The notes beneath the pieces are model-generated. The model made no database searches, was not told the DNA's origin, and saw only the letters and a program-made list of their open reading frames with translations. A DNA stretch of 64,000 bases from contig NZ_JAHVAA010000003.1 of assembly GCF_019264485.1 (NCBI RefSeq), positions 2,355 through 66,354 of the forward strand, given 5' to 3'. Shown piece after piece: positions 34,183-59,933 of this stretch. How positions within the stretch are numbered: position 1 is the stretch's first letter; every line of letters starts with the position of its first letter. The stretch is from Sediminibacterium sp. Its GTDB lineage: Bacteria > Bacteroidota > Bacteroidia > Chitinophagales > Chitinophagaceae. The translations under genes and the position numbers were made by a program.

Positions 34183-35301
34183 ATGATTCTTGGTATACTA
34201 AGTGAAAGAAATACAGACAAAAGAGTATCGCTCTTACCGGAACAGGCAGACGCACTGGTTAAAAAGAATGTAGCGGTATGGATGGAGAAAGGCGCAGGTG
34301 AAAATGCATTTGCAGCCGATACTGTTTATACAGACAAGCAGGTTGTTTTACAGGATCGTAATACGATCTTATCACAGAGCGATTTGCTGCTTTGTATTCA
34401 TCCGCTGTCAGCAGCAGAAATCAGTTTATTAAAACCCGGTCAGGTAATAGTAGGGGTGTTTCAACCCTTATTCAATATTACACTGATGCAGGAGCTGGCT
34501 GCAAAACAGGTAACATTATTCAGCCTCGATTTAATTCCACGTACCACCCGTGCACAAAGTATGGATGTGTTGAGCAGTCAGGCGAATATTGCAGGATACA
34601 GGGCCGTATTACTGGCAGCTACATTATTCCCCCGTTATTTCCCCATGTTTATGACGGCTGCAGGTAGTATACCTCCTGCAAAAGTATTAATCATCGGTGC
34701 CGGTGTAGCAGGTTTGCAAGCCATAGCAACGGCACGTAGACTGGGTGCAGTAGTGGAAGTGTCTGATACAAGACCTGCTGTAAAAGAAGAAGTGATGAGT
34801 CTGGGTGCGAAATTTATTGAAGTAGAAGGAGCCGCCGATGCATCAAAAGCAGGTGGTTATGCAGTGGAACAGTCAGAAGAGTTCAAACAAAGACAACAAC
34901 AAAGACTGGCAGAATCGGTGGCCAAATCTGATATCATTATCACCACTGCACAGATACCCGGTAAAAAAGCACCATTGCTGGTTACCGAATCTATGTTGAA
35001 CAGTATGAAACCTGGTAGTGTAATTATTGATCTTGCTGCTTCAACAGGCGGAAATGTATTTGCTACAAAAAATAATGAAACCATTGTTCATAACGGAGTA
35101 ACCATCATGGGTAACAGTAACCTGGCAGCCGATATGCCATGGGATGCCAGTAAACTATACGGAAAAAACGTACTCAACTTCCTGCAACTCATCATTGACA
35201 AAGAGGCGCAACTAAACCTCAACTTTGAAGATGACCTGGTGAAAGGATGCTGTATTACACATGGAGGAGAACTGGTGCATGAGAGGGTGAAGAAAGCGTG
35301 A
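34183..35301 (+). CDS. pntA: NAD(P) transhydrogenase subunit alpha, part 1
   Basis: 'VLIIGAGVAGLQAIATARRLGA' NAD-binding motif and an alanine dehydrogenase/PNT fold pattern. Confidence 0.9.
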   Translation: MILGILSERNTDKRVSLLPEQADALVKKNVAVWMEKGAGENAFAADTVYTDKQVVLQDRNTILSQSDLLLCIHPLSAAEISLLKPGQVIVGVFQPLFNITLMQELAAKQVTLFSLDLIPRTTRAQSMDVLSSQANIAGYRAVLLAATLFPRYFPMFMTAAGSIPPAKVLIIGAGVAGLQAIATARRLGAVVEVSDTRPAVKEEVMSLGAKFIEVEGAADASKAGGYAVEQSEEFKQRQQQRLAESVAKSDIIITTAQIPGKKAPLLVTESMLNSMKPGSVIIDLAASTGGNVFATKNNETIVHNGVTIMGNSNLAADMPWDASKLYGKNVLNFLQLIIDKEAQLNLNFEDDLVKGCCITHGGELVHERVKKA

Positions 35302-35362
35302 ATAGTCAGTAGTGAGTAGTGAGTAGAATATTTTGAATACTCACTATTCACTACTCACTATA
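35298..35362. repeat. heptamer-hairpin element (TRGTGAR family), copy 1
   Basis: The left arm gtgaatagtcagtagtgagtagtgagta overlaps the pntAA stop. The right arm is tactcactattcactactcactata. Confidence 0.85.
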
Positions 35363-35402
35363 CTGGTTGCCGATAAAAAAATCTATCTAAACTAACATAC
35401 AA

Positions 35403-35711
35403 ATGGAAGCCGTTTTAAACTGGATACAGGCGCATATCGAAATTATCTACATCGTACTCCTGTCAATTTTTTTAGGAATTGAAGTGATTGGACGTGTGCC
35501 GAGTGTATTACATACGCCGCTTATGAGTGGTGCCAATGCCATTCATGGAGTGGTAATTATTGGAGCCATTATTGTGATGGGGAAGGTAGAGCCGGGTAAT
35601 TATATTGCACTTGTAATCGGCTTTTTGGCGGTAGTACTTGGCACACTCAATGTGGTGGGCGGATTTGTAGTGACCGACCGGATGCTTGAAATGTTTAAAA
35701 AGAAAAAATAG
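35403..35711 (+). CDS. pntA: NAD(P) transhydrogenase subunit alpha, part 2 (membrane)
   Basis: 102 aa with 3 TM segments, located between pntAA and pntB. Confidence 0.85.
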   Translation: MEAVLNWIQAHIEIIYIVLLSIFLGIEVIGRVPSVLHTPLMSGANAIHGVVIIGAIIVMGKVEPGNYIALVIGFLAVVLGTLNVVGGFVVTDRMLEMFKKKK

Positions 35712-35747
35712 TATATCGCTCCCGAACAGGGATTGAAAAAAATAAGT

Positions 35748-37169
35748 ATGGAATTAAGTCTGCTCACTCTTTGTTACCTGATTGGTTCGTTGACATTTAT
35801 CATCGGACTAAAAATGCTGTCACACCCCGACTCTGCCAGGAAAGGTAATCTGGTGGCTGCTGTGGGTATGGCGGTTGCTATTTTCGGCACCATTTTTTTG
35901 TATGAAGAAGAAGGGAAGAAACTGGGTAATTACGAATGGATTTTTGGCGGACTTATTTTAGGTACCATCGTTGGTGTATTAGCAGCAAGAAAAGTAAAGA
36001 TGACTGCTATGCCCGAAATGGTGAGCCTGTTCAATGGAATGGGAGGAGCCTGCGCAGCGTTGATTTCTTTTATTGAATTTGATCATATTAAAGATGCTTT
36101 TGCCAAAGGGATAACTATTGAAATTCATGCCGGAACTTTAATAACCATATTTCTTGGGTTAATTATTGGCTCAGTTTCTTTTGCAGGAAGTGTGATTGCA
36201 TGGGGTAAACTGAATGGCAAAATCAAAGACTTTGCTTTTCCGGGTCAGCAAATATTTAACCTTGTTTTATTAGCGGCAACATTGGTAACAGCAGGTTATC
36301 TGGTGTTTAACCTCAATGCAGAAAATTACTGGCTCTTCTATGGTATTGCCATTGCTTCATTGATTTATGGTGTGTTATTTGTATTACCCATTGGTGGCGC
36401 CGATATGCCCGTGGTTATTTCATTACTCAACTCCTTTACCGGTGTAGCTGCTGCCTGTGGTGGTTTCCTTTACGATAACCAGGTAATGTTAACAGGAGGT
36501 ATACTTGTAGGTGCAGCAGGTACATTGCTCACCATACTCATGTGTAAAGCAATGAACAGAAGTCTTACCAATGTATTGATTGGGTCTTTTGGTGGTAATA
36601 AATTTAGTGGTGCCAGTGCTTCACAAGGCCCGCAGGGTAATTACAAAGAAATATCTATTTCCGACGCTGCTGTATGTATGTGTTATGCCAATAAAGTAAT
36701 TATTGTTCCGGGTTATGGACTGGCAGTGGCACAGGCACAACATACCTGTCATGAACTGGAGAAATTACTGGAAGAAAAAGGAGTTGCTGTTACTTATGCT
36801 ATTCACCCGGTAGCAGGTCGTATGCCGGGTCATATGAATGTGTTATTGGCGGAAGCAGATGTGAGCTACGATAAACTGCAGGAAATGGAACAGGCCAACG
36901 ATGAATTTAAAACTACTGATGTGGTACTCATACTGGGCGCCAATGATGTGGTAAATCCTGCAGCTAAAACCGATCCATCATCGCCCATTTATGGCATGCC
37001 CATTCTCGAAGTGGAACAGGCTAAAACAGTAATCGTAAATAAGCGTAGTATGAAACCCGGTTATGCGGGTATTGAAAATGAACTCTTCTTCCAGCCAAAA
37101 ACATCCATGTTATTTGGCGATGCAAAAGCGGCGTTACAAAAATTAGTTACGGAGATCAAAGCGTTATAA
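35748..37169 (+). CDS. pntB: NAD(P) transhydrogenase subunit beta
   Basis: A multi-TM N-half and an NADP(H)-binding C-half ('VPGYGLAVAQAQ', 'IHPVAGRMPGHMNVLLAEA', 'GANDVVNPAA'). Confidence 0.9.
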   Translation: MELSLLTLCYLIGSLTFIIGLKMLSHPDSARKGNLVAAVGMAVAIFGTIFLYEEEGKKLGNYEWIFGGLILGTIVGVLAARKVKMTAMPEMVSLFNGMGGACAALISFIEFDHIKDAFAKGITIEIHAGTLITIFLGLIIGSVSFAGSVIAWGKLNGKIKDFAFPGQQIFNLVLLAATLVTAGYLVFNLNAENYWLFYGIAIASLIYGVLFVLPIGGADMPVVISLLNSFTGVAAACGGFLYDNQVMLTGGILVGAAGTLLTILMCKAMNRSLTNVLIGSFGGNKFSGASASQGPQGNYKEISISDAAVCMCYANKVIIVPGYGLAVAQAQHTCHELEKLLEEKGVAVTYAIHPVAGRMPGHMNVLLAEADVSYDKLQEMEQANDEFKTTDVVLILGANDVVNPAAKTDPSSPIYGMPILEVEQAKTVIVNKRSMKPGYAGIENELFFQPKTSMLFGDAKAALQKLVTEIKAL

Positions 37170-37239
37170 TTCTTCATTTCATTTATTCTAGTCATAGCTC
37201 CGGGTTTAAAGCCGGAACTATGTGTTTCTGAGAATAGCA

Positions 37240-37247
37240 TATTTTTG
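37240..37247 (+). promoter_or_regulatory. candidate -7 box (TATTTTTG) 4 nt upstream of the methyltransferase ATG
   Basis: Matches TAnnTTTG, with ATG at 37252. Confidence 0.35.
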
Positions 37248-37251
37248 CGAT

Positions 37252-38607
37252 ATGCCAGTTCCGCACGATCTTATTCAATCTCTTCAGGATGTTCCGGGCT
37301 TTAATGAATCTTCATTCAAACAGGTACATGAATCTGGTGAACAGGTTACAGCCATTCGCTTTCATCCTCTAAAACAACAATGGACAAGCCTTGAGCGGTC
37401 AGGTGAAAAAATTCCCTGGTGCCTGCTGGGTTTATATCTTCCTGAAAGACCTTCTTTTACTTCTGATCCTTCTTTTCATGCAGGTGCTTATTATGTGCAG
37501 GATGCAAGCAGTATGTTTCTCTGGCAAATGCTGCAGCAATTAGTACCGGATGCTGAAGGTAAAAAAGTATTGGATCTCTGTGCCGCACCCGGAGGTAAGT
37601 CTACTTTACTCGCTTCTTATTTTCCGGAAGGCTTACTGGTAAGCAATGAAGTCATTAAATCACGTGCAGCCATCTTGGTGGAGAATATGACCAAGTGGGG
37701 GAATGATAATGTGGTGGTTACCAATAATGATCCTGCTCAGTTTCAGTCGCTGGGAAATTATTTTGATGTGATTGTAGTGGATGCTCCCTGTAGTGGAAGT
37801 GGTTTATTCAGAAAAGATCCTGATGCCATAAACGAATGGAGCCTTGATCATGTTCAGCTATGCAGCCAACGACAGCAGCGGATTTTATCTGATATTCTGC
37901 CTGTACTCAAAGAAGAAGGTATTTTAATCTATGCCACCTGCTCCTATTCAAAAGAAGAAGATGAAATGATTGCAGACTGGTTAGTAGATGAAATGGAAAT
38001 GGAATCTTTGCCTGTTCAGACAGATGATGCATGGGGTATTGTTCATTCCTTATCAGCAAAACAACAGGCAGCAGGTTACCGTTTTTACCCCGACCGTTTA
38101 AAAGGGGAAGGCTTTTTTATAGCTGCTTTTAAAAAGAAACAAACAGAGGCAAAACTGTCTTATGGAAAAAATGTAAGCATCACAAAACCTGGTAAACAAG
38201 AATTGGAGCAGGTATTGTCATTTTCCCCCCTGACAGATGAATATCATGTCTTTAAACAGGCTGATCAGTTCAGGGTAGTTCAACGAAAATGGCTGGATGA
38301 TATCAATATACTTGCCGGCTCGCTATATATCCGCAAAGCAGGTGTTGAAATCGGCACCATCAAAGGAAAAGATATTGTACCATCCCACGAACTGGCGATG
38401 AGTTTATTGCCCAAAGAATCTTTTAGTCAGACTGAGGTTGATCGTGAACAGGCGCTTCAGTACCTGCGCCGTCAGGATATTTCTTTGCAGGCACCTAAAG
38501 GATGGAATTTAATCACTTATCAAAACCTTTCCCTTGGCTGGATAAAAGCCCTTCCGAACCGTATCAACAACTATTACCCGCAGGAATGGAGAATACGAAA
38601 TAAATAA
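37252..38607 (+). CDS. RsmB/RsmF/NOP-family rRNA cytosine-C5 methyltransferase
   Basis: 'DLCAAPGGKST', 'DAPCSGSGLFRKDP' and 'YATCSYSKEEDE'. Confidence 0.85.
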   Translation: MPVPHDLIQSLQDVPGFNESSFKQVHESGEQVTAIRFHPLKQQWTSLERSGEKIPWCLLGLYLPERPSFTSDPSFHAGAYYVQDASSMFLWQMLQQLVPDAEGKKVLDLCAAPGGKSTLLASYFPEGLLVSNEVIKSRAAILVENMTKWGNDNVVVTNNDPAQFQSLGNYFDVIVVDAPCSGSGLFRKDPDAINEWSLDHVQLCSQRQQRILSDILPVLKEEGILIYATCSYSKEEDEMIADWLVDEMEMESLPVQTDDAWGIVHSLSAKQQAAGYRFYPDRLKGEGFFIAAFKKKQTEAKLSYGKNVSITKPGKQELEQVLSFSPLTDEYHVFKQADQFRVVQRKWLDDINILAGSLYIRKAGVEIGTIKGKDIVPSHELAMSLLPKESFSQTEVDREQALQYLRRQDISLQAPKGWNLITYQNLSLGWIKALPNRINNYYPQEWRIRNK

Positions 38608-38686
38608 GAAATAAGGAATAAGAAACAAGGAGTAAGAAAGTAGTGTGCTACTTTATTTTCTCATTTCATGTTTCTTATTTCTTATT
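38603..38686. repeat. imperfect hairpin of AATAAGR heptamers
   Basis: aataaga aataagg aataaga aacaagg agtaaga aagtag, then loop tgtg, then ctactttattttctcatttcatgtttcttatttcttatt. It overlaps the methyltransferase stop. Confidence 0.75.
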
Positions 38687-38702
38687 ACTCTGTTTAACTC
38701 CT

Positions 38703-38710
38703 TAAATTTG
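38703..38710 (+). promoter_or_regulatory. candidate -7 box (TAAATTTG) for the LysM protein gene
   Basis: Matches TAnnTTTG, 23 nt upstream of ATG 38734. Confidence 0.4.
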
Positions 38711-38733
38711 CCATTCTCATCCCCCCGAGGCCT

Positions 38734-39687
38734 ATGAAAAAATATTGCTTATTTATACTTGTATGTTTATTTGGGCTCACGGCTTTTGCTCAACAGAAAC
38801 TGTTGATCAAGGGTAAGGCCACAGCTATGTATATTGAGCATAAGGTTGGTGAGAAAGAATCACTTTCATCAGTGGGCAGGTTATACGATCTTACCGCTTC
38901 GCAACTGGCCCGCTTTAATGGTAAAAGCCCTTCCTCTCTTTTATCTAAAGGAAGTGTCATCAAAGTGCCATTGAAATTACAGGATATTCAGGCAACAGGG
39001 AACGGAAGAGCGGTGTATCATGTGGTGGGTAAAGGTGATAACCTGTTTAAAATTGCTCAGACCTATAATAAAGTTCCCCTCACTCAAATACGGAAATGGA
39101 ATAAACTGGGTAATAATGCTGTTAAAAACGGACAGCAAATTATAGTTGGTTATCTTAAAATAAATACAGAAGAAACAATTGCTGCTAAAACAGCACCAGC
39201 AGAAAATATAGTTGCTGAGAAAAATACAGATATTGTAACCATTGCTGAGAAACCGGTAACCATTGTGAATGAGCCCACAAAAAAAACCGAGGTTAAAACA
39301 GAAGCTGTTTTGCCTGTAACAGAAGTAAAAAAAGAAATTGTGCCGGCGGCAGGACAACAAGGCCCTGATGAAGGTTTTTTCGCATCTCTTTATGTAAAAA
39401 ATGATCTTACGCTGGTTCAGAAATCTTTTTCGGGCAGTGCTTCTACTTTTAAAACAATCAGCGGTTGGACAGACAGGAAATATTACGTACTAATCAATGA
39501 TATAACACCAGGTACCATTGTGCGTATTACGGCAGTTAATAATAAAAGTATTTGTGCAAGGGTACTGGGTCCTTTGCCGGAAACCAAGGGAGCGGAGGGT
39601 TTATTATTACGTATGAGCAATTCTGCCGCATCTGTTTTAGACATGAAGGACCAGCAGTTTATAATAACACTTACTTATTTTGAATAA
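38734..39687 (+). CDS. secreted protein with two LysM peptidoglycan-binding domains
   Basis: Signal peptide. LysM 'HKVGEKESLSSVGRLYDLTASQLARFNG' and 'HVVGKGDNLFKIAQTYNKVPLTQIRKWN'. Confidence 0.8.
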   Translation: MKKYCLFILVCLFGLTAFAQQKLLIKGKATAMYIEHKVGEKESLSSVGRLYDLTASQLARFNGKSPSSLLSKGSVIKVPLKLQDIQATGNGRAVYHVVGKGDNLFKIAQTYNKVPLTQIRKWNKLGNNAVKNGQQIIVGYLKINTEETIAAKTAPAENIVAEKNTDIVTIAEKPVTIVNEPTKKTEVKTEAVLPVTEVKKEIVPAAGQQGPDEGFFASLYVKNDLTLVQKSFSGSASTFKTISGWTDRKYYVLINDITPGTIVRITAVNNKSICARVLGPLPETKGAEGLLLRMSNSAASVLDMKDQQFIITLTYFE

Positions 39688-39694
39688 GACATTT

Positions 39695-40393
39695 ATGAAA
39701 CCGTTGATTCAATATGTATTTGTGGTGGTAATCGCTTTTTCATCCTGTGATAGTATTGCACAACAGAAATTGTCTATTACAGTGACCGAATTCGAATCAA
39801 AATGGCAAACAGGATCCTATCAGTTATTAGATGTAAGAACTACGGGTGAATACAAAGCTGGTCATCTTAAAAATTCCTTGCAAGCTGATTGGCTGAATAA
39901 ACAACAGTTTGAGGAGAGGACGAGGCATTTGGATAGATCGAAACCATTGCTGGTGTATTGCGCCTCAGGTGTAAGAAGTGAACAGGCTGCAAAATGGTTG
40001 CTTAAACAAGGCTTTGCTGAAGTATTCAATTTGAAAGGAGGTACATCAGCATGGCAAATAGAAGGCAGACAACTGGAGGCTGATGTGGTGACTCAGCAGA
40101 TGACAATAAGTATATTTCAACAGAAAATTCAGACAGAAGGGATAGTGTTGGTTGATATTGGTGCCGAATGGTGTCCACCCTGTAAAAAAATGGAACCTGT
40201 TCTTACGCAACTACAAAAAGAAATGGGTAATAAATATCAGTTGGTAAAAGTAGATGGCGGCACTGATATAGAAGTGATGAAAAGTATCAAAGCCAGCGTA
40301 CTACCTACTTTCATTGTTTATAAAGAGGGTAAAGAAATTTGGCGTAAGGAAGGAATTGTTGACCTCACAACGCTGAAATCGAAACTACAGTAA
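39695..40393 (+). CDS. exported rhodanese-thioredoxin fusion protein
   Basis: Lipoprotein-like signal 'VIAFSSC', rhodanese active-site loop 'VYCASGVRS', and thioredoxin 'WCPPC'. Confidence 0.8.
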   Translation: MKPLIQYVFVVVIAFSSCDSIAQQKLSITVTEFESKWQTGSYQLLDVRTTGEYKAGHLKNSLQADWLNKQQFEERTRHLDRSKPLLVYCASGVRSEQAAKWLLKQGFAEVFNLKGGTSAWQIEGRQLEADVVTQQMTISIFQQKIQTEGIVLVDIGAEWCPPCKKMEPVLTQLQKEMGNKYQLVKVDGGTDIEVMKSIKASVLPTFIVYKEGKEIWRKEGIVDLTTLKSKLQ

Positions 40394-40403
40394 CCCTGTA
40401 TAA

Positions 40404-41324
40404 TTATTGCTGGCGGTAACCTCGCAGAAAATCTTCAACAGCCATTCTTTTCTTTCCTTCCAGTTGCATATTCAGTACATAAATGTATCCATCAGTACAG
40501 GTGAAGCGCAGATAGGTTTTACCATCTGTGTGCATGGTGCCCGGTTGGTCTTTTACAATGTTGTATTCCTTTTTACTGCTGTATATTTTCAATACTTTAC
40601 CTTCTAATGTGGTTAACGCACCTGGATATGGCGATAATCCACGGATCAGGTTGTGAACCTGATCTGCTGTATTAGCCCAGTTTATTTTACAGGTTTCCGT
40701 GAAAATTTTTGGGGCATGCCTGATATCTGACTCGGTAAAAAGTTCGTCCTGTATTTTTTCTTTGAGAATGCCCTGTTGTAAACCTTCTACAGTTTGTACA
40801 AGAAGTCTGGCTCCGATTAATTTCATGCGGTCATGTACTTCTCCGGCTGTTTCATCGGGTCCAATTGTAAAACGATCCTGTAATAATATATTACCGGTAT
40901 CAATTTCATGTTTCAGTTTAAAAGTAGTTACGCCTGTTTCTTTCTCTCCATTTATTACGGCCCAGTTAATGGGAGCAGCTCCACGGTATTGTGGTAACAA
41001 TGAACCATGCAGGTTAATAGTACCCATTGGCGGCATGTTCCAGACAATCTCCGGTAACATACGAAATGCCACTACAATCTGCAGGTCTGCTTTTAACTCC
41101 TTTAATTGTGCAATAAATCCGGGGTCCTTTAATTTTTCGGGTTGCAGAACCGGAAGATTTTTTTCTGAGGCATATTTTTTTACAGCACTCTGCTGTAATT
41201 GCATACCCCTGCCTGCCGGTTTATCAGGTGCCGTAACAACTGCTGCAATAGTAAAGCCGGCATTCACCAAAGCATCTAATGACGCTACAGCAAACTCGGG
41301 AGTGCCCATGAAGATGATACGCAT
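40404..41324 (-). CDS. fmt: methionyl-tRNA formyltransferase
   Basis: 'MRIIFMGTPEFA', 'INLHGSLLPQYRGAAPINWA'. Confidence 0.95.
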   Translation of the reverse strand: MRIIFMGTPEFAVASLDALVNAGFTIAAVVTAPDKPAGRGMQLQQSAVKKYASEKNLPVLQPEKLKDPGFIAQLKELKADLQIVVAFRMLPEIVWNMPPMGTINLHGSLLPQYRGAAPINWAVINGEKETGVTTFKLKHEIDTGNILLQDRFTIGPDETAGEVHDRMKLIGARLLVQTVEGLQQGILKEKIQDELFTESDIRHAPKIFTETCKINWANTADQVHNLIRGLSPYPGALTTLEGKVLKIYSSKKEYNIVKDQPGTMHTDGKTYLRFTCTDGYIYVLNMQLEGKKRMAVEDFLRGYRQQ

Positions 41325-41325
41325 A

Positions 41326-41403
41326 GTGGTGAGTGGTGAGTAGTGAGTGGTGAGTGGTGAGTAGGTTAAAAAATTGACTCACTGCTCACTATTCACTACT
41401 CAC
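41326..41403. repeat. heptamer-hairpin element (TRGTGAR family), copy 2
   Basis: gtggtgag tggtgag tagtgag tggtgag tggtgag tag, a loop, then ctcactgctcactattcactactcac. Confidence 0.85.
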
Positions 41404-41411
41404 TTTCTTTG

Positions 41412-42716: not shown

Positions 42717-42891
42717 ATAAGGGTCTTTAAAATGCGAAAGTTAACAAAAAATACTTGGCTGCACTTCCTTTGCAGGTTGTACTTTTGCGCTTCGGTTCGT
42801 TTTAATAACAACTTAACTTTTTCTTCCTGTTTTTCCGGATGTCAATGCTAAGCTACTACGTTCCGTATTCTTTATCACATAACAAAAAAGT

Positions 42892-43347
42892 ATGCAACAA
42901 GTAAAAAAAGGTGATACTGTAAAAGTGCATTATCACGGCAAATTAACCAATGGAACTACATTTGATTCATCTGAAGGAAGAGAGCCATTGGAGTTTGAAG
43001 TGGGTGGCGGAATGGTGATCCCAGGATTTGATGACGGTGTTACCGGTATGGCCATTGGCGAAAAGAAAACAATTCATATCCCTGCCGATCAGGCTTATGG
43101 ACCTAAACAGGAAGAAATGATTATGGAATTTCCCCGTGACCGTTTCCCTGCAGATATGGTTCCGGAAGTGGGAATGCAATTAAATATGAGTAATGGTTCA
43201 GGACAAAATTTTCCTGTAACCATTGCTGAAGTACGTGAAGCTGTGGTAGTACTCGATGCCAATCACCCACTGGCAGGAGAAGAACTGATCTTCGATCTGG
43301 AACTGGTTTCCATCGATGGCGGAACTCCGTTGATCATTATGCCTTAA
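42892..43347 (+). CDS. FKBP-type peptidyl-prolyl isomerase (SlyD-like)
   Basis: '[21 protein letters not shown]...[19 protein letters not shown]', with an IF-domain insert. Confidence 0.85.
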
Positions 43348-43369
43348 TACAGATAAACAACGAATAAAA

Positions 43370-43403
43370 AGGTCGCAGTAACAATTACTGTGACCTTTCT
43401 TTT
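43370..43403 (+). terminator. rho-independent terminator after the FKBP gene
   Basis: aggtcgcagtaa / ttactgtgacct stem followed by tttctttt. Confidence 0.7.
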
Positions 43404-43447
43404 ATAGTGAAATGGGATGAATGAGCAGTGAATATCGTTGTATGATA

Positions 43448-43993: not shown

Positions 43994-44084
43994 AAGGTTG
44001 TTTTTGGTTGTATACAAAATAGAAAAGAGAATCGGTAAATGCAAGTATTACGTTATACAGTAACTGATTTCTGTATTTTGCAGC

Positions 44085-45323: not shown

Positions 45324-45373
45324 ATCGCTTAACTTAAATGGCTTTTCCGTTTGCTCACAAGAAAAAAAATGCC

Positions 45374-47087: not shown

Positions 47088-47136
47088 GATAGTACATGGT
47101 CCATAGCAGATGGGTTACTATGGACCATGTACTATC
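47088..47136. repeat. perfect 19-bp hairpin between convergent genes (GGTCCAT word family)
   Basis: gatagtacatggtccatag (47088..47106) pairs with ctatggaccatgtactatc (47118..47136). There is no U-tract. Confidence 0.85.
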
Positions 47137-47148
47137 AACTATAGGCTA

Positions 47149-48339
47149 CTAAATAATCTGTTCACTGATTTTGCCTGTCTGCTTATGTTTCAGGATTAAT
47201 TTTTTAGTGCCGAAATGTGTCATCTCTTCTTTTATAAGATAATGTTGATCATCATAGGAAACAAGATGACTTCCTTTGGTAAGTCCGGTTTGTCCTCTCC
47301 AGATATCTAACTGAACAGGTTCCCATTGTTTGCTTTTGGCCGATTTGTATGCGGCATCAAGAATTGAGTTTACCACATAGCCATCATAAAATGTTTCTTT
47401 AGGGTCAACACCTTTTTCCATGGCGTTAAACATATCCATGAACATATGGTTATAACCAAGTTCATTTAACTCGTCACCCACCGGGAAGAGCCAGCCAGTG
47501 TTGCTTTCTGCTTTTTCTGCCACATAATCTGCGCCTTTGCCCGTGGTAAACATATCGAAACCAGTGCGGAGAAAACTGTTGATCCAGATAGTACCTTCAC
47601 TACCCATTACTTCATCGCGCAGATCAAGTCCGCCACGAAAAGTCCAGCTTACTTCAAACTGACCAATAGCACCGTTTTCATATTTTACCAGACCGATCGC
47701 ATGGTCTTCAGCATCAATGGGTTTTACCTGTGTATCGGCCCAGCACATGACTTCTACAGGTTTAATATCTTTACCAATATAACTTCTGGTAATTTCAACA
47801 CAATGACAACCGAGATCGAGAATACAACCTCCACCGGCCTGTTCAATATCCCAGAACCATTCGCTGTGCGGGCCAGGATGCGTTTCTCTCGATTTAGCCC
47901 AAAGTATCCTTCCCAGAGCACCATTCTTTACACTTTCCATGGCCTTGATAAATTTTGGTGTGTAAACCAAGTCTTCGAGATAACCATTAAAAATACCTGC
48001 TTCTTCTACTGCCAGTAACATCCGTTTGGCTTCTGCTGCATTACGCCCCAGGGGTTTGGTGGTCATCACTGCTTTTTTATGTTTGCAGCATAACATTACA
48101 GCAGCTTCGTGAAGATTATTGGGGAGAGAGATACATACTATATCTACATCAGGATGCGCTATGGCTTCTTCCATATCAATAGTCCAATGTTCGCAATGAT
48201 AATCTTCAGCGAATTTTTTTGCACTTTCTTCTCTGCGGGAATAAATACTGATGATTTTATCCCTGCTTCTGTAACCCTGTAAAGAATCGGCATAAAACCG
48301 GCCAATAAAACCGGAACCGAGCATAGCAATTTTTTTCAT
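47149..48339 (-). CDS. Gfo/Idh/MocA family oxidoreductase
   Basis: 'KKIAMLGSGFIGRFY' Rossmann motif and 'EKP-like' 'TTKPLG'. ATG at 48339. Confidence 0.8.
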   Translation of the reverse strand: MKKIAMLGSGFIGRFYADSLQGYRSRDKIISIYSRREESAKKFAEDYHCEHWTIDMEEAIAHPDVDIVCISLPNNLHEAAVMLCCKHKKAVMTTKPLGRNAAEAKRMLLAVEEAGIFNGYLEDLVYTPKFIKAMESVKNGALGRILWAKSRETHPGPHSEWFWDIEQAGGGCILDLGCHCVEITRSYIGKDIKPVEVMCWADTQVKPIDAEDHAIGLVKYENGAIGQFEVSWTFRGGLDLRDEVMGSEGTIWINSFLRTGFDMFTTGKGADYVAEKAESNTGWLFPVGDELNELGYNHMFMDMFNAMEKGVDPKETFYDGYVVNSILDAAYKSAKSKQWEPVQLDIWRGQTGLTKGSHLVSYDDQHYLIKEEMTHFGTKKLILKHKQTGKISEQII

Positions 48340-48351
48340 ATGTGTTGTTAT

Positions 48352-48425
48352 GGTGAGTAGTGAATAGTCAGTAGTGAGTGATTTAAGTGCATAAAAATAC
48401 TCACTATTCACTACTGACTACTCAC
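48352..48425. repeat. heptamer-hairpin element (TRGTGAR family), copy 3
   Basis: ggtgagtagtgaatagtcagtagtgagtg, a loop, then tactcactattcactactgactactcac. Confidence 0.85.
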
Positions 48426-48431
48426 TTCTTC

Positions 48432-50275: not shown

Positions 50276-50347
50276 ACATTTGTTATCGCTTTAAGCAAAT
50301 GGTCTTCTGACATTTGGCAGATAGTTAATTATACTAAAATCTGTCAA

Positions 50348-51927: not shown

Positions 51928-52041
51928 GGAATACCCAGAAAGAGGTATTTTAAGTGAACTTATTATTTTATACATTGTTGCAGAAATGGAGTTGTAGTTT
52001 CAAAGTGCCAGTAATTATTGAAAACGGTACAATTACTATTC

Positions 52042-53379: not shown

Positions 53380-53398
53380 ACGGGATCATGAGTTTCCG

Positions 53399-54379
53399 AT
53401 GCGGTTTCAGGTGAATTATCAAAACAATAGTGGAAGTAATATTCAGGTGTTTCCAACGAAAGTATGGAACATTCCTCACGATTTGTATGCACCTTCTTCA
53501 CCAAAAGGGGCAGGTGCTCAGGAACACGAAACATATATTATACCAGAGGAGATTGGTACTTTGTTTGGAAACCTGCCCATTGCATTTCGGACGAGAAATA
53601 CCAATAATACTTTCAGAACAGTTCTTACTGTGAATGTACCCGTTGCAGTTGCTTTTTTGAGTCAGAATTATGAAAAAAACATTACCCTTAATGTATTGAG
53701 AGAAAGTAGTGCCAATAAAGTACAGGTAGACGATTTACTGAATCTACCCGCGCTTGATGATGCTGGTAATTATTTTGCTTCAAAAGCGGAAACACCACGT
53801 ACTAACCTGCAAATCACCAAACAGCTAAATCAGTATGAAATAGCCAACTGGATGAAAATACAATTACCCGCCTACCTGGGAATCAATGAATATAAAAGCC
53901 AGCTCATCAACCTGAATAATAAACAGTTTGCTCACAGTTCTCAGCAATATGGTGTAGCTGTGTCTAAAATTTCTTCCAGTAACATCTATAATTATACTAA
54001 CAACTTCGAAAAAATGCTGGATAATGATGACTCATTGAAGTTGACCATCAGAAAATTTTTATTTTCTGATAATACCATTAAAACTGATCAACCCTATATA
54101 CAAATCAGACAAACAAATTCAAGTAAAACCTCCAGAGGAGATCAATACAGGCATGTAGCTGCAATGATACGCTTTGGGAAGGCCGATCTGATTAATGAGT
54201 TCAAATATTGTAATATCGTCTTACTGCAATCTGAAGCCAGCTACTATATGATCCTGCTGCAAAGATCATCTTATCCGAAGCCCTTAAATGAAAATAGTGC
54301 AAGCCTGAGTACTGCAGAAGAAAATGCTTTATATGAGCAGATGAAAGTGATCATACAAAATATTGAATGCTATGAGTAA
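53399..54379 (+). CDS. hypothetical protein (no signal peptide, no recognisable motif)
   Basis: Long ORF in an AT-rich block, 19 nt after the Sel1-like gene. Its stop overlaps the next ATG. Confidence 0.5.
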   Translation: MRFQVNYQNNSGSNIQVFPTKVWNIPHDLYAPSSPKGAGAQEHETYIIPEEIGTLFGNLPIAFRTRNTNNTFRTVLTVNVPVAVAFLSQNYEKNITLNVLRESSANKVQVDDLLNLPALDDAGNYFASKAETPRTNLQITKQLNQYEIANWMKIQLPAYLGINEYKSQLINLNNKQFAHSSQQYGVAVSKISSSNIYNYTNNFEKMLDNDDSLKLTIRKFLFSDNTIKTDQPYIQIRQTNSSKTSRGDQYRHVAAMIRFGKADLINEFKYCNIVLLQSEASYYMILLQRSSYPKPLNENSASLSTAEENALYEQMKVIIQNIECYE

Positions 54380-54896
54380 ACATGCCCGTCGAGTGAGGTA
54401 TTTTATACTGCCTCTGCTGCTTGTATTATTCAATACACAAACTTTGCATGCACAAAAACAGGAACTGAGTAATATACCAGGGAGAATAAATGGTAAAAAA
54501 CAGGTTTTTACAGAGGTGGTTGCAAAAATGGATAAATTTTCTCCTTTTTATTCAATTGCATTTTCATTCTATGTGGGAAGTAGTAGTGACGAAGACTATG
54601 ATGGCATACGTCCTTATTTGTATTTTATTTTCAGAAGTTCAAAAAGACAGTTCTTAAATAAATTGCCCTGGCCACAGACCTATTCCAAATTCCTGTTTTT
54701 AACAGCTGATCATATGGGTATTGGTCAGGGAATTGCATATTATGATGAAAATGCAAAGCGGGATATTCAACTGGTTATTGAAAAAATCGAGAAAAGAAGC
54801 GATGGCGCCAATATCATTGTAGGAACCATTGACTATAAAATGAATAACGATAATCAACTGAAAGGTCCGTTCAGGGCTGTTCTCAGTGCTTATTAA
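54372..54896 (+). CDS. hypothetical secreted protein
   Basis: Signal peptide 'RYFILPLLLVLFNTQTLHAQ'. Overlaps the upstream gene by 8 nt. Confidence 0.5.
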   Translation: MSKHARRVRYFILPLLLVLFNTQTLHAQKQELSNIPGRINGKKQVFTEVVAKMDKFSPFYSIAFSFYVGSSSDEDYDGIRPYLYFIFRSSKRQFLNKLPWPQTYSKFLFLTADHMGIGQGIAYYDENAKRDIQLVIEKIEKRSDGANIIVGTIDYKMNNDNQLKGPFRAVLSAY

Positions 54897-55549
54897 TCAA
54901 AGAAGTCAATCGTATTATTGTATTTGATATCCCTTATAGCCGACCATTCATAAATACTGGCCAGCCTTTTCCATTCACCCTCGATCTTTTCGTAAATCCA
55001 GAAAGTACCTTCTTTTGAGAAAATACTGCTTTTACCGAGATAGAAAAAACAGAGTGTATTGTTGCGGAGAAAAAAAGGAGCAGTAAAATGCTGTACTTCC
55101 ATACAGATTTTCTGCTGTGGTTTTGCTTTGCTGTTATCTGTTTTGGTGAGCAGTGGTTCAACTGAATTCAATGGAATCATATAAGCAAAAGGAAACATTT
55201 TAGCCGGCCAGCTTATTTTTTTTACAGCATCTAACTGGCTCACTATATAACGTCTCTCTTCCAGTGTAAACCGGGTTTTTCTTTTTACATACACAGCCTG
55301 ATCGGGGTCCCATTCCTTGAATTCTTTGTCTGATAAAAAAGCCTGTTTTACTTTATTGATAATATTGGTATCTACCCTGTCTGAATAAAAAAAAGTATCA
55401 CATTCCTGGTAAGCAAAGGGGCGGTCATTAAACCAATTACTGTAAATATCCCTGATCAGCGATGCCGACGACGAACTCTCCTGAGCCCTTAGCTGAAGAG
55501 AAATAATAAGAATCGCCAATAAAAAAATGGATCGTTTATACAACCGCAT
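54893..55549 (-). CDS. hypothetical secreted protein
   Basis: Signal peptide 'SIFLLAILIISLQLRAQ'. Its stop overlaps the convergent gene's stop within TTAA. Confidence 0.5.
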   Translation of the reverse strand: MRLYKRSIFLLAILIISLQLRAQESSSSASLIRDIYSNWFNDRPFAYQECDTFFYSDRVDTNIINKVKQAFLSDKEFKEWDPDQAVYVKRKTRFTLEERRYIVSQLDAVKKISWPAKMFPFAYMIPLNSVEPLLTKTDNSKAKPQQKICMEVQHFTAPFFLRNNTLCFFYLGKSSIFSKEGTFWIYEKIEGEWKRLASIYEWSAIRDIKYNNTIDFFD

Positions 55550-55621
55550 GCAATGAGATTACAGAATCCTTAAAGATATTCAGGATTTGAATACGAAATA
55601 CAGACGAAGATTAGAAGCTGG

Positions 55622-56785
55622 TTAAAGCAGTGCCTGTAAGATATCCGCCAGTATATCATCTTTATGCTCCAGTCCTACAGAAATACGGATAAGTCCGGGT
55701 GTAATATTAACGGCTTGTCTTTCCTCTTCTGTAAGTTTGGCATGCGTGGTGCTTGCAGGGTGCGAGGCAATACTTCTCGTATCTCCGAGGTTGGCGGTAA
55801 GAGAAAGCATTTTCAGTTTATTCAAAAAATTCCTGCCAGCTTCCAATCCTCCCTTTAATTCAAAACATACAATGCCACCTCCGTTTTGCATCTGTTTTTG
55901 TGCAATGGTGAACTGCGGATGCGATTTTAGGTATGGGTATTTCAGCCAACTAATAGCAGCATGTCCTTCCAGTGCCGAAGCTATATGCAAGGCGTTGGCT
56001 GCATGCCGTTCCATTCTTACATCGAGGGTCTCAAGGCTTTTGCTCAGTACCCAAGCATTAAAAGGAGATAAAGCAGGCCCTGTACTTCTGCAGAACAGGT
56101 AAATATCTTTAATAAGTTCTTTTTTTCCTACCACCACACCACCCAATACCCGGCCCTGTCCGTCAAGCCATTTGGTAGCAGAATGCACCACCAGATCGGC
56201 GCCGTATTCAATGGGTTGCTGGTTAACAGGTGTGGCAAAACAATTGTCGACGTTCAGGATAATACCATGTTTTCGAGACAGTTTTCCAATCATCTCCAGA
56301 TCCAGCAAATCAAGCCCCGGATTGGTAGGTGTTTCCAGGTAAATCATTTTGGTATTGGGTTGAATAGCAGTTTCCCAGGCAGCAGCGTCTGCTGTTGCAG
56401 GTACATACGAATATTCAATGCCATATTTCGGCAGGTATTTGGAAATGACGGTATGGGTACTGCCAAATATGGAATTGCAGGACAACAGGTGATCGCCCTG
56501 TTTCATCAACGCCATAAAAGAACCAAAAACGGCGCTCATTCCCGAAGCAGTGGCATAACCGGCTTCAGCACCCTCCAGCTCACATACCCTGTCTACAAAT
56601 TCCTGCACATTCGGATTGCTGAAACGGCTGTAAATATTGTCATCTGTTTCATCTGCAAAGGCCGCACGCATCGATTCTGCATCCTCAAAACAAAAACTGC
56701 TGGTAAGGAACAGAGGGGAAGAATGTTCCATTTCACTGGTTCTGTTGACCTGGGTACGGATGGCACGGGTAATTTTATCGGACAT
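55622..56785 (-). CDS. PLP-dependent O-acyl-homoserine sulfhydrylase / cystathionine gamma-synthase family enzyme (MetZ-like)
   Basis: 'YSRFSNPNV', PLP-lysine context 'HSATKWLDGQG', and 'IRISVGLE'. Confidence 0.8.
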   Translation of the reverse strand: MSDKITRAIRTQVNRTSEMEHSSPLFLTSSFCFEDAESMRAAFADETDDNIYSRFSNPNVQEFVDRVCELEGAEAGYATASGMSAVFGSFMALMKQGDHLLSCNSIFGSTHTVISKYLPKYGIEYSYVPATADAAAWETAIQPNTKMIYLETPTNPGLDLLDLEMIGKLSRKHGIILNVDNCFATPVNQQPIEYGADLVVHSATKWLDGQGRVLGGVVVGKKELIKDIYLFCRSTGPALSPFNAWVLSKSLETLDVRMERHAANALHIASALEGHAAISWLKYPYLKSHPQFTIAQKQMQNGGGIVCFELKGGLEAGRNFLNKLKMLSLTANLGDTRSIASHPASTTHAKLTEEERQAVNITPGLIRISVGLEHKDDILADILQALL

Positions 56786-56844
56786 GATGAAGATTTGAAG
56801 ATGTCGAATCCCTGATGGCTGATTTGCCTTTTCAAAGATTTTTA

Positions 56845-56852
56845 CAAATGTA
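56845..56852 (-). promoter_or_regulatory. candidate -7 box (TACATTTG) for the metZ-like gene
   Basis: caaatgta on plus, 59 nt upstream of ATG 56785. Confidence 0.3.
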
Positions 56853-56882
56853 ATTCACTCCTGCCCTTATTTTGCTGTTGAA

Positions 56883-57926
56883 ATGAGGAATAATCAGTTG
56901 AAATATTTTGAATACAAACAGGTGTTTGCATTAGAATCGGGTTTGTCGCTGCCCGCCCTCACCATTGCTTATCATACCTATGGTGAGTGGAAAGGAAGCG
57001 AATCGAAAGTGGTTTGGGTTTGCCATGCATTAACAGCCAGTGCAGATTGTGCCGATTGGTGGAAAGGGTTGATAGGAGAGGATTCACTGATTAATCCTGA
57101 TGATTATTTTATTGTTTGTGCCAATATACTGGGGTCCTGTTATGGTACAACGGGCCCGTTAAGCAAGAACCCGATAACAGACACACCCTATTTTTCAACC
57201 TTCCCCAATATCACCATTCGCGATATGGTACAGGCACATATACTGCTGCGCGAACATCTGGGTATCAAAAAAATCAGTTTACTGATGGGTGGAAGTATGG
57301 GCGGTTACCAGGCACTCGAATGGGCGCTCATGGAACCTTTCGTTATTCAACGTTTATTTTTAATTGCTACATCGCCATCGGAGAGTGCCTGGGGAGTTGC
57401 GGTACATACTGCACAAAGATTGGCCATTGAAGCAGACGATAGCTGGAAAGATGCAAATGAGAAAGCCGGTGCTAAAGGTTTAAAAGCGGCACGCGCCATT
57501 GGCATGCTCACCTATCGGAATTATGGAATTTTTCAACAGGCACAAACCGATCCTGATCCGGAGAAAATCGATGATTTTCGCGCCGCTTCTTATATAAACT
57601 ATCAGGGAGAAAAACTGGTGAACCGCTTCAATGCCTATTCATACTGGTTACTTACCAAATCGATGGACAGTCACCACCTTGGGCGGGGAAGGGGAGGTAA
57701 TCTGATTGAAACACTGAACCTGGTACAGCAACCCGTATTAATTATTGGTATTGACAGTGATATTCTCTGTCCTTTAGACGAACAGCGGTTTATGCAGGAA
57801 CACCTGCCTAATGCTACACTGATAGAAATAGGGTCAACCTATGGGCATGATGGGTTTATTATTGAAACCAGGCAGATTACCCGGCACCTGGGACCCTGGC
57901 TTGAACAGAACCAAACTGGCGGATAA
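56883..57926 (+). CDS. metX: homoserine O-acetyltransferase
   Basis: 'VVWVCHALTASAD', nucleophile elbow 'GGSMGGYQALEW', and 'YGHDGFI'. Confidence 0.9.
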   Translation: MRNNQLKYFEYKQVFALESGLSLPALTIAYHTYGEWKGSESKVVWVCHALTASADCADWWKGLIGEDSLINPDDYFIVCANILGSCYGTTGPLSKNPITDTPYFSTFPNITIRDMVQAHILLREHLGIKKISLLMGGSMGGYQALEWALMEPFVIQRLFLIATSPSESAWGVAVHTAQRLAIEADDSWKDANEKAGAKGLKAARAIGMLTYRNYGIFQQAQTDPDPEKIDDFRAASYINYQGEKLVNRFNAYSYWLLTKSMDSHHLGRGRGGNLIETLNLVQQPVLIIGIDSDILCPLDEQRFMQEHLPNATLIEIGSTYGHDGFIIETRQITRHLGPWLEQNQTGG

Positions 57927-57930
57927 CTGT

Positions 57931-57938
57931 TATTTTTG
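57931..57938 (+). promoter_or_regulatory. candidate -7 box (TATTTTTG) for the small membrane protein gene
   Basis: Matches TAnnTTTG, 15 nt upstream of ATG 57954. Confidence 0.3.
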
Positions 57939-57953
57939 TATAAATGGATTTTT

Positions 57954-58130
57954 ATGGGCATCCTCAGACAATTAGCAGAATACCTCTACATTAAAAAGAA
58001 AGACCCCGATCAGCCACGTACACAGTGGATGAAATATATGCATGGCATGAACCGCATTTCGTTGATCATGTTTATGGCAGCGTTACTGATTATTATTTTT
58101 AAACTGGTGATACTACCCATGTTCCGATAA
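57954..58130 (+). CDS. small hypothetical membrane protein
   Basis: 58 aa with one C-terminal TM segment, 'ISLIMFMAALLIIIFKLVILPMF'. Confidence 0.4.
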   Translation: MGILRQLAEYLYIKKKDPDQPRTQWMKYMHGMNRISLIMFMAALLIIIFKLVILPMFR

Positions 58131-58167
58131 AATTTGTCCCCTCTATGTATTTGCATAAATTACATAG

Positions 58168-58728
58168 ATGAAAATCGGGGTATCTATTGTCGTTTTACTT
58201 TGTGCTGTTTGTATGCATTCTGTTCATGCACAGGTAGCAGATACATTGTTATGGCAACCTGAACGAACGTTGAATTGGATGGATTATAAAGGGGTGCCAG
58301 ATCAGCAATCACATTATACAGCGCTTACACATGCAGAAATAAGGTATCAGGTATCCATGCAGCGCTCTTTTGCAAAATTTGATTTCGCAACCCTTTTTCT
58401 CAAAAAAACTTCCTGGACCAAACATACCCGGGACCCGCTTCTATTGAAACACGAGCAGGTTCATTTTAATATTGCGGAGCTACATAAAAGAGTATTCATT
58501 GAAATACTATATACCCGGCATCTCTCCTATACAGGGTTTGAAACAGAAGTGAAAAGACTGGGCGATTCTGTAAATGTGGCCAGACACCGGATGGATGATG
58601 CATTTGATGCAGATGTATCGAATATGCGTGATAATATGAAAATCAATAAATGGTACAGGCAGATCGAAGAAATGTTGAATCGGTTAAAAGCCTATGACCG
58701 AAACAGTATTCTCATTGCGTTGAAATAA
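58168..58728 (+). CDS. DUF922-like putative zinc metallopeptidase, secreted
   Basis: Signal peptide and 'HEQVHFNIAELH' (an HExxH-type motif). Confidence 0.5.
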   Translation: MKIGVSIVVLLCAVCMHSVHAQVADTLLWQPERTLNWMDYKGVPDQQSHYTALTHAEIRYQVSMQRSFAKFDFATLFLKKTSWTKHTRDPLLLKHEQVHFNIAELHKRVFIEILYTRHLSYTGFETEVKRLGDSVNVARHRMDDAFDADVSNMRDNMKINKWYRQIEEMLNRLKAYDRNSILIALK

Positions 58729-58733
58729 ACGTT

Positions 58734-59855
58734 CTATTTTTTTATCAGGCTGATCACCTGTTGCGCCGCTAAAGAAGATGCGTTTCCACTCTCCGATAAA
58801 CGCTCCCATAAAACAGCATAATCAGACATTATTTGTTGCCGGTGTTGTTTATTCTCCAGAATAAGATGTAACTCGTGTACCAGGTTCTTTGTATTCAGTT
58901 CCTGTTGTATCAGTTCCTTCACCACCAGTTTATCCATGATCAGGTTGACTAATGAAATATATTTTATACTGATTAATCGTTTGGCAATCTGGTAGCTGAT
59001 ATTACTTCCTTTGTAACACACGATCTCAGGCACTTTCAAAAGTGCTGTTTCCAAAGTAGCGGTTCCGCTTGTTACCAATGCTGCATCAGACTGCATCAGA
59101 AGCTCATAAGTCTGGTTACTCACACTGCTTACATTGGGTGCTGATGCTAAAAAAGGCTGATAAAATGCATCATCCAGACCCGGTGCTTTGGCCACCACAA
59201 AATGGTAATCCGGAAAAAGCGGAGCCACGCTCAGCATAATGGGTAATTTTTTACTGATCTCCTGCTTACGGCTGCCTGGTAGTAACGCAATAATGGCTTT
59301 ATGATGATCACCTGCTTCTTGTTTCTTGTTGCCTGATTCTTTTATTTTCCTGTCTATCACTTCTACCAGTGGATGACCAACATATTCTACATTCCAGTTC
59401 CATTTGGTTTTGTAATAATCTTTTTCAAAGGGAAGTATGCAAAGCATTTTATCGATGCATTGTTTCATTTTCTTCACCCTGTTTTCTTTCCAGGCCCAAA
59501 CCTGGGGTGAAATATAATAAGCTACTTTAAATCCTTGCTTTTTGGCCCATTCAGCGATACGCAGGTTAAATCCGGGATAATCAATTAACACTAAAACATT
59601 GGGTTGCCAGTTTTGTATATCAGCTTTGCAGTATCTGATATTGCGAAGAATGACAGGTAAATTTTTCACTACTTCGGCAAAACCCATAAAAGCCAGATCG
59701 CGGAAGTGTTTAACCAGTGTACCACCTGCAGCTTCCATTAAATCGCCACCCCAGCAGCGTATATCCGCTTCAGGGTCCTGTTGTTTCAATGCTTTAATAA
59801 GGTTGCTGCCGTGCAGGTCACCGCTGGCTTCACCTGATATGAGGTAGTATTTCAT
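58734..59855 (-). CDS. lpxB: lipid-A-disaccharide synthase
   Basis: 'MKYYLISGEASGDLHG', 'LIDYPGFNL' and 'ATLETALL'. ATG at 59855. Confidence 0.9.
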   Translation of the reverse strand: MKYYLISGEASGDLHGSNLIKALKQQDPEADIRCWGGDLMEAAGGTLVKHFRDLAFMGFAEVVKNLPVILRNIRYCKADIQNWQPNVLVLIDYPGFNLRIAEWAKKQGFKVAYYISPQVWAWKENRVKKMKQCIDKMLCILPFEKDYYKTKWNWNVEYVGHPLVEVIDRKIKESGNKKQEAGDHHKAIIALLPGSRKQEISKKLPIMLSVAPLFPDYHFVVAKAPGLDDAFYQPFLASAPNVSSVSNQTYELLMQSDAALVTSGTATLETALLKVPEIVCYKGSNISYQIAKRLISIKYISLVNLIMDKLVVKELIQQELNTKNLVHELHLILENKQHRQQIMSDYAVLWERLSESGNASSLAAQQVISLIKK

Positions 59856-59933
59856 AGTGAATGGTGAGTAATGAGTAGTCAGTAGTGAATAGCAAGGAGT
59901 ATTCCACTCACTATTCACTACCGACTACTCACT
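59856..59933. repeat. heptamer-hairpin element (TRGTGAR family), copy 4
   Basis: agtgaatggtgagtaatgagtagtcagtagtgaatag, a loop, then cactcactattcactaccgactactcact. It abuts the lpxB start codon. Confidence 0.85.

Follow-up and report, generated by a model that had tools for sequence, protein, structure and literature searches.

Intergenic hairpins with tandem-heptamer arms in a Sediminibacterium genome as probable gene-less forms of a PF05635-carrying insertion element

In a 64-kb stretch of a Sediminibacterium sp. genome (assembly GCF_019264485.1, contig NZ_JAHVAA010000003.1; this whole stretch is called the window below), four intergenic hairpins were characterized, the arms of which are tandem arrays of a 7-nt unit following the pattern (TRGTGAR)n-loop-(YTCACYA)n. 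Hairpins with such TAGTGAG/CTCACTA arms were found in relatives of the window both bare and around a small gene of the PF05635/TIGR02436 family. We consider it probable that the hairpins of the window belong, as copies lacking a gene, to a family of small palindromic insertion elements in which the full form carries a PF05635/TIGR02436 gene in its loop. Heptanucleotide repeats, the commonest class of long simple sequence repeats (SSRs) in bacteria (Mrazek et al. 2007), are without an accepted origin or function, and PF05635/TIGR02436 genes as well as protein-coding rRNA intervening sequences are equally unexplained. With one arm family occurring both bare and around a PF05635 gene, within housekeeping operons of bacteria that can be cultured, these separate problems become a single question that can be tested.

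An original prediction, made from the sequence of the window, had proposed the four hairpins, and all of them were recovered by direct reading, word count and folding; Pfam supported the gene contexts that it had assigned (pntAA|pntAB, DUF1343|fmt, permease|Gfo oxidoreductase and a divergent region at lpxB). The left arms are purine-rich and contain 3-5.4 TRGTGAR units with TAGTCAG and TAATGAG variants, the loops measure 11-20 nt and the right arms are complementary, resulting in stems of 25-39 bp. Copy 1 (35298-35362; left arm 35298-35326, right arm 35338-35362) is located between pntAA and pntAB. Its left arm reads GTGAATA GTCAGTA GTGAGTA GTGAGTA G and its right arm CTCACTA TTCACTA CTCACTA T, with a loop of 11-13 nt; the pntAA stop codon (TGA, 35299-35301) is overlapped by the hairpin and the pntAB ATG lies at 35403. 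Copy 2 (41325-41404) harbors 5.4 TGGTGAG/TAGTGAG units in its left arm (41325-41364), has its right arm at 41377-41404 and lies between NamZ (DUF1343) and fmt, abutting the fmt start codon (CAT, 41322-41324) at a distance of 7 nt from the NamZ stop (41412). Copy 3 (48351-48426; left arm 48351-48381, right arm 48398-48426) fills the 92-nt spacer between a nucleoside symporter and a GFO oxidoreductase gene, except for 5 nt towards the symporter stop (48432) and 12 nt towards the oxidoreductase ATG (48339). Copy 4 (59856-59934; left arm 59856-59892, right arm 59906-59934) occupies the divergent intergenic region at the 5' end of lpxB and abuts its start codon (CAT, 59853-59855), so that only 0-1 nt separate copies 2 and 4 from the ATGs of fmt and lpxB. 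The arms of all four copies are intergenic or touch a stop codon only.

The word TRGTGARTRGTGAR with at most one mismatch was detected 20 times in the window, against 0.27 expected, and this count was reached in 0/100 shuffles. Folding of every copy on both strands yielded energies between -29 and -50 kcal/mol, with z-scores from -5.3 to -10; 0/200 shuffles were as stable. Tandem Repeats Finder (TRF) reported period 7 with 3-5.4 units in all eight arms. Further, CTCACTATTCACTAC is present in the right arm of each of the four copies, and the 20-mer GTGAATAGTCAGTAGTGAGT, which combines three different unit variants in the same order, is common to copies 1 and 3. Since this 20-mer and other multi-unit blocks are common to the copies, they do not represent independent slippage products; judged from their sequences, the four copies are homologous to one another.

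None of the four copies is followed by a U-tract, as was seen by reading the tails directly, which contain no T run, and none was flagged in a terminator scan that did flag a canonical terminator at 43368-43398. Because the U-tract is absent and one copy lies inside the pnt operon and another in a divergent region, the hairpins are not ordinary terminators, in agreement with the original prediction that simple termination is insufficient. Its 'half element' at 43404-43437 is doubtful: the site directly follows the terminator at 43368-43398, contains degenerate GTGA-like units without a partner arm, gave no fold (z +1.4) and has no counterpart in relatives. Whichever strand is read, the 5' arm carries stop codons in each of the three frames, and the element can therefore sit on, or replace, the end of an upstream ORF (open reading frame). 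The earlier claim that a unit length of 7 rules out coding thus holds only in part, as the upstream gene takes its stop codon, and in some cases also its final codons, from the array, whereas the spurious N-terminal extensions that it had named are real (ORFs 47149..48411 and 58734..59918). Neither TAGTGAG nor TGGTGAG units contain tracts of three or more G, and single arms, being purine-rich or pyrimidine-rich arrays, are not self-complementary. Rfam gave no curated match for the hairpins, only sub-threshold miRNA-precursor models, as is usual for any long hairpin. In RNA runs less than 10% of the sampled words were present and the hairpin was not covered.

To place PF05635 genes relative to such arrays, 2.2 Mb of sequence were surveyed. 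All PF05635 genes in this sequence (L006, L049, L219 and L241) lie between inverted tandem arrays, which begin at the upstream stop codon; the Pfam matches in L006 and L049 have E values of about 1e-24 to 4e-25. Five PF05635 orthologues of Mucilaginibacter are likewise bracketed, here by arrays of 8-nt units. Among other small genes, 14 of 897 were bracketed, and none of the ten that were checked with Pfam belonged to PF05635; those matched were rpsK, pth, YceI, a response regulator and a cupin. Small genes between GTGA/TCAC arrays were rejected as an alternative cargo, as those with a Pfam match are ordinary genes that each lie between two complete hairpins. The PF05635 family corresponds to TIGR02436, a four-helix bundle that is weakly Avd-like, and its nearest solved structure is 2GSC (Xanthomonas XCC0516).

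The TAGTGAG/CTCACTA arms of the window enclose a PF05635 gene in L300 (5382-5843), which shares a 3.63-Mb contig with L289, a close relative of the window, and in Sediminibacterium goheungense (L301, 7223-7739). In the L300 element the hemB stop lies inside the array TAGTCAG TAGTGAA TAGTGAG TAGTGAG, followed by a leader and a 108-aa PF05635 gene; on the 3' side ACTGACTA CTCACTA CTGACTA CTCACT is separated by 5 nt from the hemL ATG. The S. goheungense element is located one spacer beyond the L300 site, and DNA identity between the two is 68% and protein identity 72%, counted across the entire element with its internal leader, whereas the PF05635 gene at the site of the L300 element, which has GTGAATT arms, shows 56% protein identity. 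As identity by arm word exceeds identity by site, arms and gene appear to go together, and the lineage of the PF05635 gene seems to follow the arm word rather than the genomic position. Bare TAGTGAG hairpins are present in the neighboring hemD|hemE and hemE|hemF spacers. A second word behaves alike: TTTGATC/GATCAAA arms were found with the gene in L241, L300, L301 and L303 at the hemF|hemB site, and without it in the thyA|folA spacer of L290, the arms being 30/36 and 30/34 identical.

In the clade of the window, spacers of the heme-biosynthesis (hem) operon harbor three PF05635 genes in L301 (SNWP01000010.1, 4001-7696; S. goheungense DSM 28323, in which two bare TAGTGAG hairpins accompany them), two in L300 and one in L303, each with its own arm word (TTTGATC, GTGAATT or TAGTGAG), and no PF05635 gene was found in the Chitinophaga hem operon (L292). 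Identical PF05635 proteins on many contigs were considered as evidence of hopping and discarded, as they represent one orthologous locus. In Mucilaginibacter (L297/L299 1354-2108, L294 1339-1500) nested gene-less hairpins were observed at the PF05635 locus, and additional (TTCAATAA)n arrays there enclose a stretch that looks like the 3' end of a further PF05635 gene. This arrangement suggests repeated insertion into the same arms.

Subsequently, the hairpins were followed at orthologous sites. In a strain 97-98% identical to the window (L195, L202) copies 2-4 are present with single transitions at R/Y positions, copy 3 of L195 differing by one transition, and in other strains (runs X3 and X29) a net gain of 7 nt was seen at copy 1. 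In a strain of about 91% identity that dominates run X30, the copy 1 site (window 35290-35374) is occupied by a 99-nt replacement beginning with AGCCCCTGTCCCACCTAAAGGGGAAC, of which the first 30 nt were read. Relatives of about 77% identity (L233, L278) and three Sediminibacterium-like genomes carry TAGTGAG-type hairpins at pntAA|pntAB and before lpxB: copy 1 has orthologous hairpins in L233, L289 and L290 and a decayed one in L287, and for copy 4 they were found in L202 and L278. Between orthologous sites, arm conservation is about 90% and the loops are unrelated; in relatives the last pntAA residues and the stop codon are encoded by the array. S. ginsengisoli, Chitinophaga and another outgroup have empty spacers of 2-26 nt. 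At the fmt site of L289/L290 the arms read GTGAAAA/TTTTCAC, the GTGA core being kept and the 3-nt tail changed, and the arms at this site are unequal in relatives, with 6-9 units against 3. Arms thus change by whole-unit slippage and transitions, loops diverge freely, and hairpins of other words turn over between relatives.

For public collections the scan pattern GTGARTRGTGAR-N8-38-YTCACYAYTCAC was used. GTDB genomes and metagenomes gave at least 120 matches in each scan, at 29-71% G+C, and among the matches listed GTGA-first heptamer hairpins occur in at least 10 phyla. Carriers among these listed matches are Acidobacteriota, Planctomycetota, Gemmatimonadota and Alpha-, Beta- and Gammaproteobacteria, and further Bacteroidota, Chloroflexota, Vulcanimicrobiota, Melainabacteria and others. 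Unrelated genomes, 866 kb in total and counted outside the seed match, contained 86 period-7 arrays versus 13, 21, 4 and 4 arrays of periods 5, 6, 8 and 9, respectively; 74 of these period-7 arrays pair to form hairpins, and the GTGA/TCAC type accounts for 35 (5.7% expected). As (TAGTGAG)n-loop-(CTCACTA)n is identical on both strands, its mirror arrangement is a physically different element. IMG/VR contained 33 stretches in the real arrangement, compared with 5 in the mirror arrangement and 5 and 3 for composition-matched words, which makes the real one 7-10 times commoner and demonstrates that word and polarity are both non-random.

Two explanations of this preference were dismissed. A general 'stops-first' design rule is contradicted by ATTTCAG/CTGAAAT hairpins, which carry the stops in the exiting arm, and stop codons alone do not account for the preferred word, as the stop-containing control GGTARTR was as rare as the other controls. 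CRP half-sites, parS half-sites, DnaA boxes, triplets of the HutP/TRAP type and pairing with the 16S rRNA 3' end were rejected because spacing or word do not fit. In the IMG/VR contigs L132, L134 and L150 GTGA-type hairpins stand on both sides of structural genes that are phage or gene transfer agent (GTA)-like and probably encode major tail proteins; the class is hence also present in viral or prophage DNA. Locus L110 (1-183) contains a very long (AATGGTC)x17 array opposite a short CCATTCAC-type arm; GTCA and GTGA units are mixed within arrays, comparable to the TAGTCAG variant of the window.

Elements commonly fill the spacer from stop to next start codon, often inside operons and often reaching the start codon itself. 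The median distance to the upstream stop codon was 6 nt in genomes, 4 nt in viral sequences and 2 nt in metagenomes, and medians to the start codon were 27-55 nt; divergent contexts were the rarest in all three collections.

We propose that the arms of the element are inward-facing tandem arrays of a 7-nt unit consisting of GT[G/C]A and three variable bases, and that the element would be co-transcribed with its host operon. By analogy with rRNA intervening sequences that bear PF05635, the stem of 25-39 bp may be a substrate of RNase III. Cleavage would split the polycistronic RNA between cistrons; part of the stem would remain as a stub at the upstream 3' end, and the downstream gene would keep a G-free, unstructured leader. 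The PF05635 protein is possibly involved in the spread of the element. Gene-less forms could have arisen by gene loss, or a gene cassette could have entered pre-existing hairpins; either route is possible.

Several observations weigh against an insertion-element family of this kind. No PF05635 gene lies within the 64-kb window, so that the link rests on relatives, and the four window copies, with their loops of 11-20 nt, contain no gene remnant. Gene-carrying TAGTGAG elements number only two, and the rule that gene lineage follows arm word is correspondingly based on few data points. Neither at the four copies nor in the comparison of filled with empty sites was a target-site duplication seen; no transposase and no defined ends were found, and the PF05635 gene does not correspond to any known transposase. 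Stable inheritance of one PF05635 locus across Mucilaginibacter means that movement must be rare. The stop codon lay within the array (distance <=0) in 29-45% of cases in the three collections, a class that any spurious ORF call would inflate, since any ORF entering the 5' arm must end there. Finally, stems tolerating G·U pairs were not in excess on the sense strand (32 vs 22, p = 0.14), and selection at the RNA level is thus not supported.

The closest published systems share some of these features. Inverted pairs of heptameric SSRs were described for Xanthomonas (GGGAATC) and Nostoc (GGGGAYT), with 70 convergent inverted pairs, G-rich first, among 186 Xanthomonas repeats (Rehm et al. 2015, PMC4692102). 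Like the hairpins of the window these are intergenic and convergent tandem 7-nt units that vary in length among relatives and keep their position. The TAGTGAG word, in contrast, is devoid of G3 tracts, which makes a G-quadruplex reading inapplicable, its word family spans many phyla, and the link to PF05635 was not noted in that work, although GGGAATC repeat #15 abuts XCC0516, the protein of 2GSC (PMC4692102, supplementary table). The Coxiella 23S intervening sequence, regarded as a selfish insertion, forms a 28-bp stem, which RNase III cleaves, with an ORF of the PF05635 family in the loop (PMC4990558). The elements described here resemble such intervening sequences of Coxiella and Leptospira in having a PF05635 ORF in the loop of a long inverted-repeat stem (28 bp compared with 25-39 bp). 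They differ in that the window copies are all flanked by protein-coding genes instead of occupying helix 25 or 45 of the 23S rRNA, and are without ORF, in that RNase III cleavage is here predicted by analogy, and in their tandem-heptamer arms, which have not been reported for intervening sequences.

Direct TAACTGA heptamers are known from Beggiatoaceae, Cyanobacteria and some Bacteroidetes, where 169 direct sets and one inverted set were counted (MacGregor 2015, PMC4679880). Together with the short tandemly repeated repetitive (STRR) sequences of cyanobacteria, bacterial heptanucleotide repeats known since 1990, they share with our hairpins the intergenic location, stops in three frames, the overlap with the upstream stop, an end near the next start codon and a patchy distribution across phyla; the hairpins differ in their word and in being paired. 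Like MITEs (miniature inverted-repeat transposable elements), short gene-less copies have inverted ends in common with rarer gene-carrying copies; unlike in MITEs, transposase and target-site duplication were not seen and the ends are tandem arrays of changing unit number. An excess of heptanucleotides, stop-carrying intergenic arrays that abut start codons and inverted pairs in Xanthomonas have thus been published. The GTGA-type hairpin family, its polarity across phyla and its tie to PF05635 were not found in the literature searched, and a search for the words themselves returned unrelated primer sequences only.

A wider reading, which we regard as possible but on the whole unlikely, would join all heptad-armed palindromes with or without PF05635 into one undescribed, phylum-spanning class of mobile DNA, with the four-helix-bundle protein, a relative of the DGR accessory factor Avd, as its maintenance or mobility factor. 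As parts of the same joint proposal, the GTGA-first polarity would result from a templated or reiterative polymerase step that extends both 3' ends with repeats at the site of a break or insertion, and 23S rRNA intervening sequences, the bacterial heptanucleotide excess and multi-copy 'four helix bundle protein' genes would be facets of one element.

Somewhat less probable still is that the hairpins are ordinary long SSRs, which arise independently at each locus by polymerase slippage (Mrazek et al. 2007), become palindromic through quasi-palindrome template switching and are neutral and unrelated to any gene. The window copies do consist of at least 3 tandem 7-nt units, are mainly intergenic and vary in unit number, as heptanucleotide long SSRs do. 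The dominance of period 7 among tandem repeats both here and in unrelated genomes fits this explanation, as do whole-unit indels between strains, one of them in a single arm, the unequal arms (6-9 units against 3) and the turnover of hairpins of other words between relatives. Independent slippage, however, does not predict that blocks of 15-20 nt spanning several units in the same variant order are common to different loci, or that one word in one orientation is found again in many phyla, at 7-10 times the frequency of mirror and control words. It also leaves aside the conservation of arms next to randomised loops at orthologous sites and the identical arm families that enclose a PF05635 gene at different loci.

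About as improbable are RNA elements selected by the host, such as mRNA stabilisers, RNase III sites, translational-coupling hairpins or U-less terminators, in which the PF05635 genes would be secondary guests. The same operon junctions are kept over roughly genus-level divergence, the fit between stop and next start codon is tight, highly expressed genes such as ribosomal protein and phage tail genes are among the neighbors, and the Xanthomonas repeats are transcribed. Against selection by the host speak the lack of a sense-strand bias in stem stability and the polymorphic presence of the hairpins, with another 99 nt at copy 1 in the strain of about 91% identity and outgroup spacers of only 2-26 nt. 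The same genome, moreover, possesses canonical U-tract terminators, one of which is directly followed by a heptamer hairpin, and a stem of -43 kcal/mol at the lpxB ATG is expected to hinder initiation.

The original prediction had compared the hairpins to repetitive extragenic palindromic (REP) sequences and bacterial interspersed mosaic elements (BIMEs). Such a family, mobilised as REP doublets forming hairpins (REPINs) by a REP-associated tyrosine transposase (RAYT), is very unlikely. The likeness concerns dispersed, homologous, high-copy intergenic palindromes, mostly at gene 3' ends and in operons, with likely effects on mRNA ends. The GTAG/GTGG of the units presumably resembles the REP head tetranucleotide, which is a lead only. 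A REP unit is an imperfect palindrome of about 20-40 nt, whereas the arms here are simple tandem heptamers, non-palindromic as units, and accordingly no pair of REP hairpins is formed; REP sequences are lineage-specific, but the word found here is shared by many phyla, and no RAYT was found among the loci examined, the whole genome not having been searched. The REP/BIME label is hence an analogy only. An assembly artefact of low-complexity reads is negligible as an explanation: most carriers are metagenome-assembled genomes and short arm unitigs show elevated depth, but the same hairpins recur with small differences in independent assemblies (L195, L202 and contigs of runs X2, X3 and X29), at conserved positions with cleanly aligning flanks, and are found in isolate genomes of Sediminibacterium goheungense, Mucilaginibacter and Mesorhizobium.

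Whichever their origin, the palindromes have practical consequences: they produce false N-terminal extensions of ORFs and interrupt assemblies, real genes obtain stop codons and C-terminal residues from them, and essential genes such as fmt and lpxB have a very stable stem immediately at the start codon.

This Sediminibacterium-like genome has a broader period-7 pattern, of which the TAGTGAG hairpins represent one word family: 18 of the 47 TRF rows of the window have period 7. An AATAAGR/YCTTATT heptamer hairpin (38599..38689) lies on the stop of an rsmF-like gene; in L195 its left arm alone is shorter by two units (14 nt). AACAGAG-type arms with a 44-nt spacer occur at 24916..25021, a site at which the relative L233 has only a plain 8-bp hairpin, and an AATTCAA-type hairpin is found at 2547..2613. 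A CACAGATT hairpin with an 8-nt unit and a perfect 22-bp stem (63337..63393) directly follows the stop of a 985-aa ORF. The thyA|folA spacer of the window contains unpaired heptamer arrays of TAAGAAA and ATCAGAC (32130..32223), and its counterpart in L290 the full TTTGATC-word hairpin.

Directly 3' of a canonical U-tract terminator, a GTCCATG hairpin is located at 22747..22813 (terminator and hairpin together 22712-22813); in L233 the same terminator is followed by a heptamer hairpin of the GCTTATA word. Between convergent genes, a GGTCCAT/ATGGACC hairpin is present at 47088..47136. Compared with it, both partners of one base pair are changed in L195, from A-T to T·G, and as the right arm is now a cleaner CATGGAC repeat, this looks like unit homogenisation. 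A non-coding segment of the window at 59990-60067 shows almost 100% conservation with a relative whose identity elsewhere is only about 77%. It contains two AACTAAAAAA(A/T)TAGTT palindromes directly upstream of a repressor gene of the BlaI/Penicillinase_R family (60068-60430), and these are probably the operator pair of that gene.

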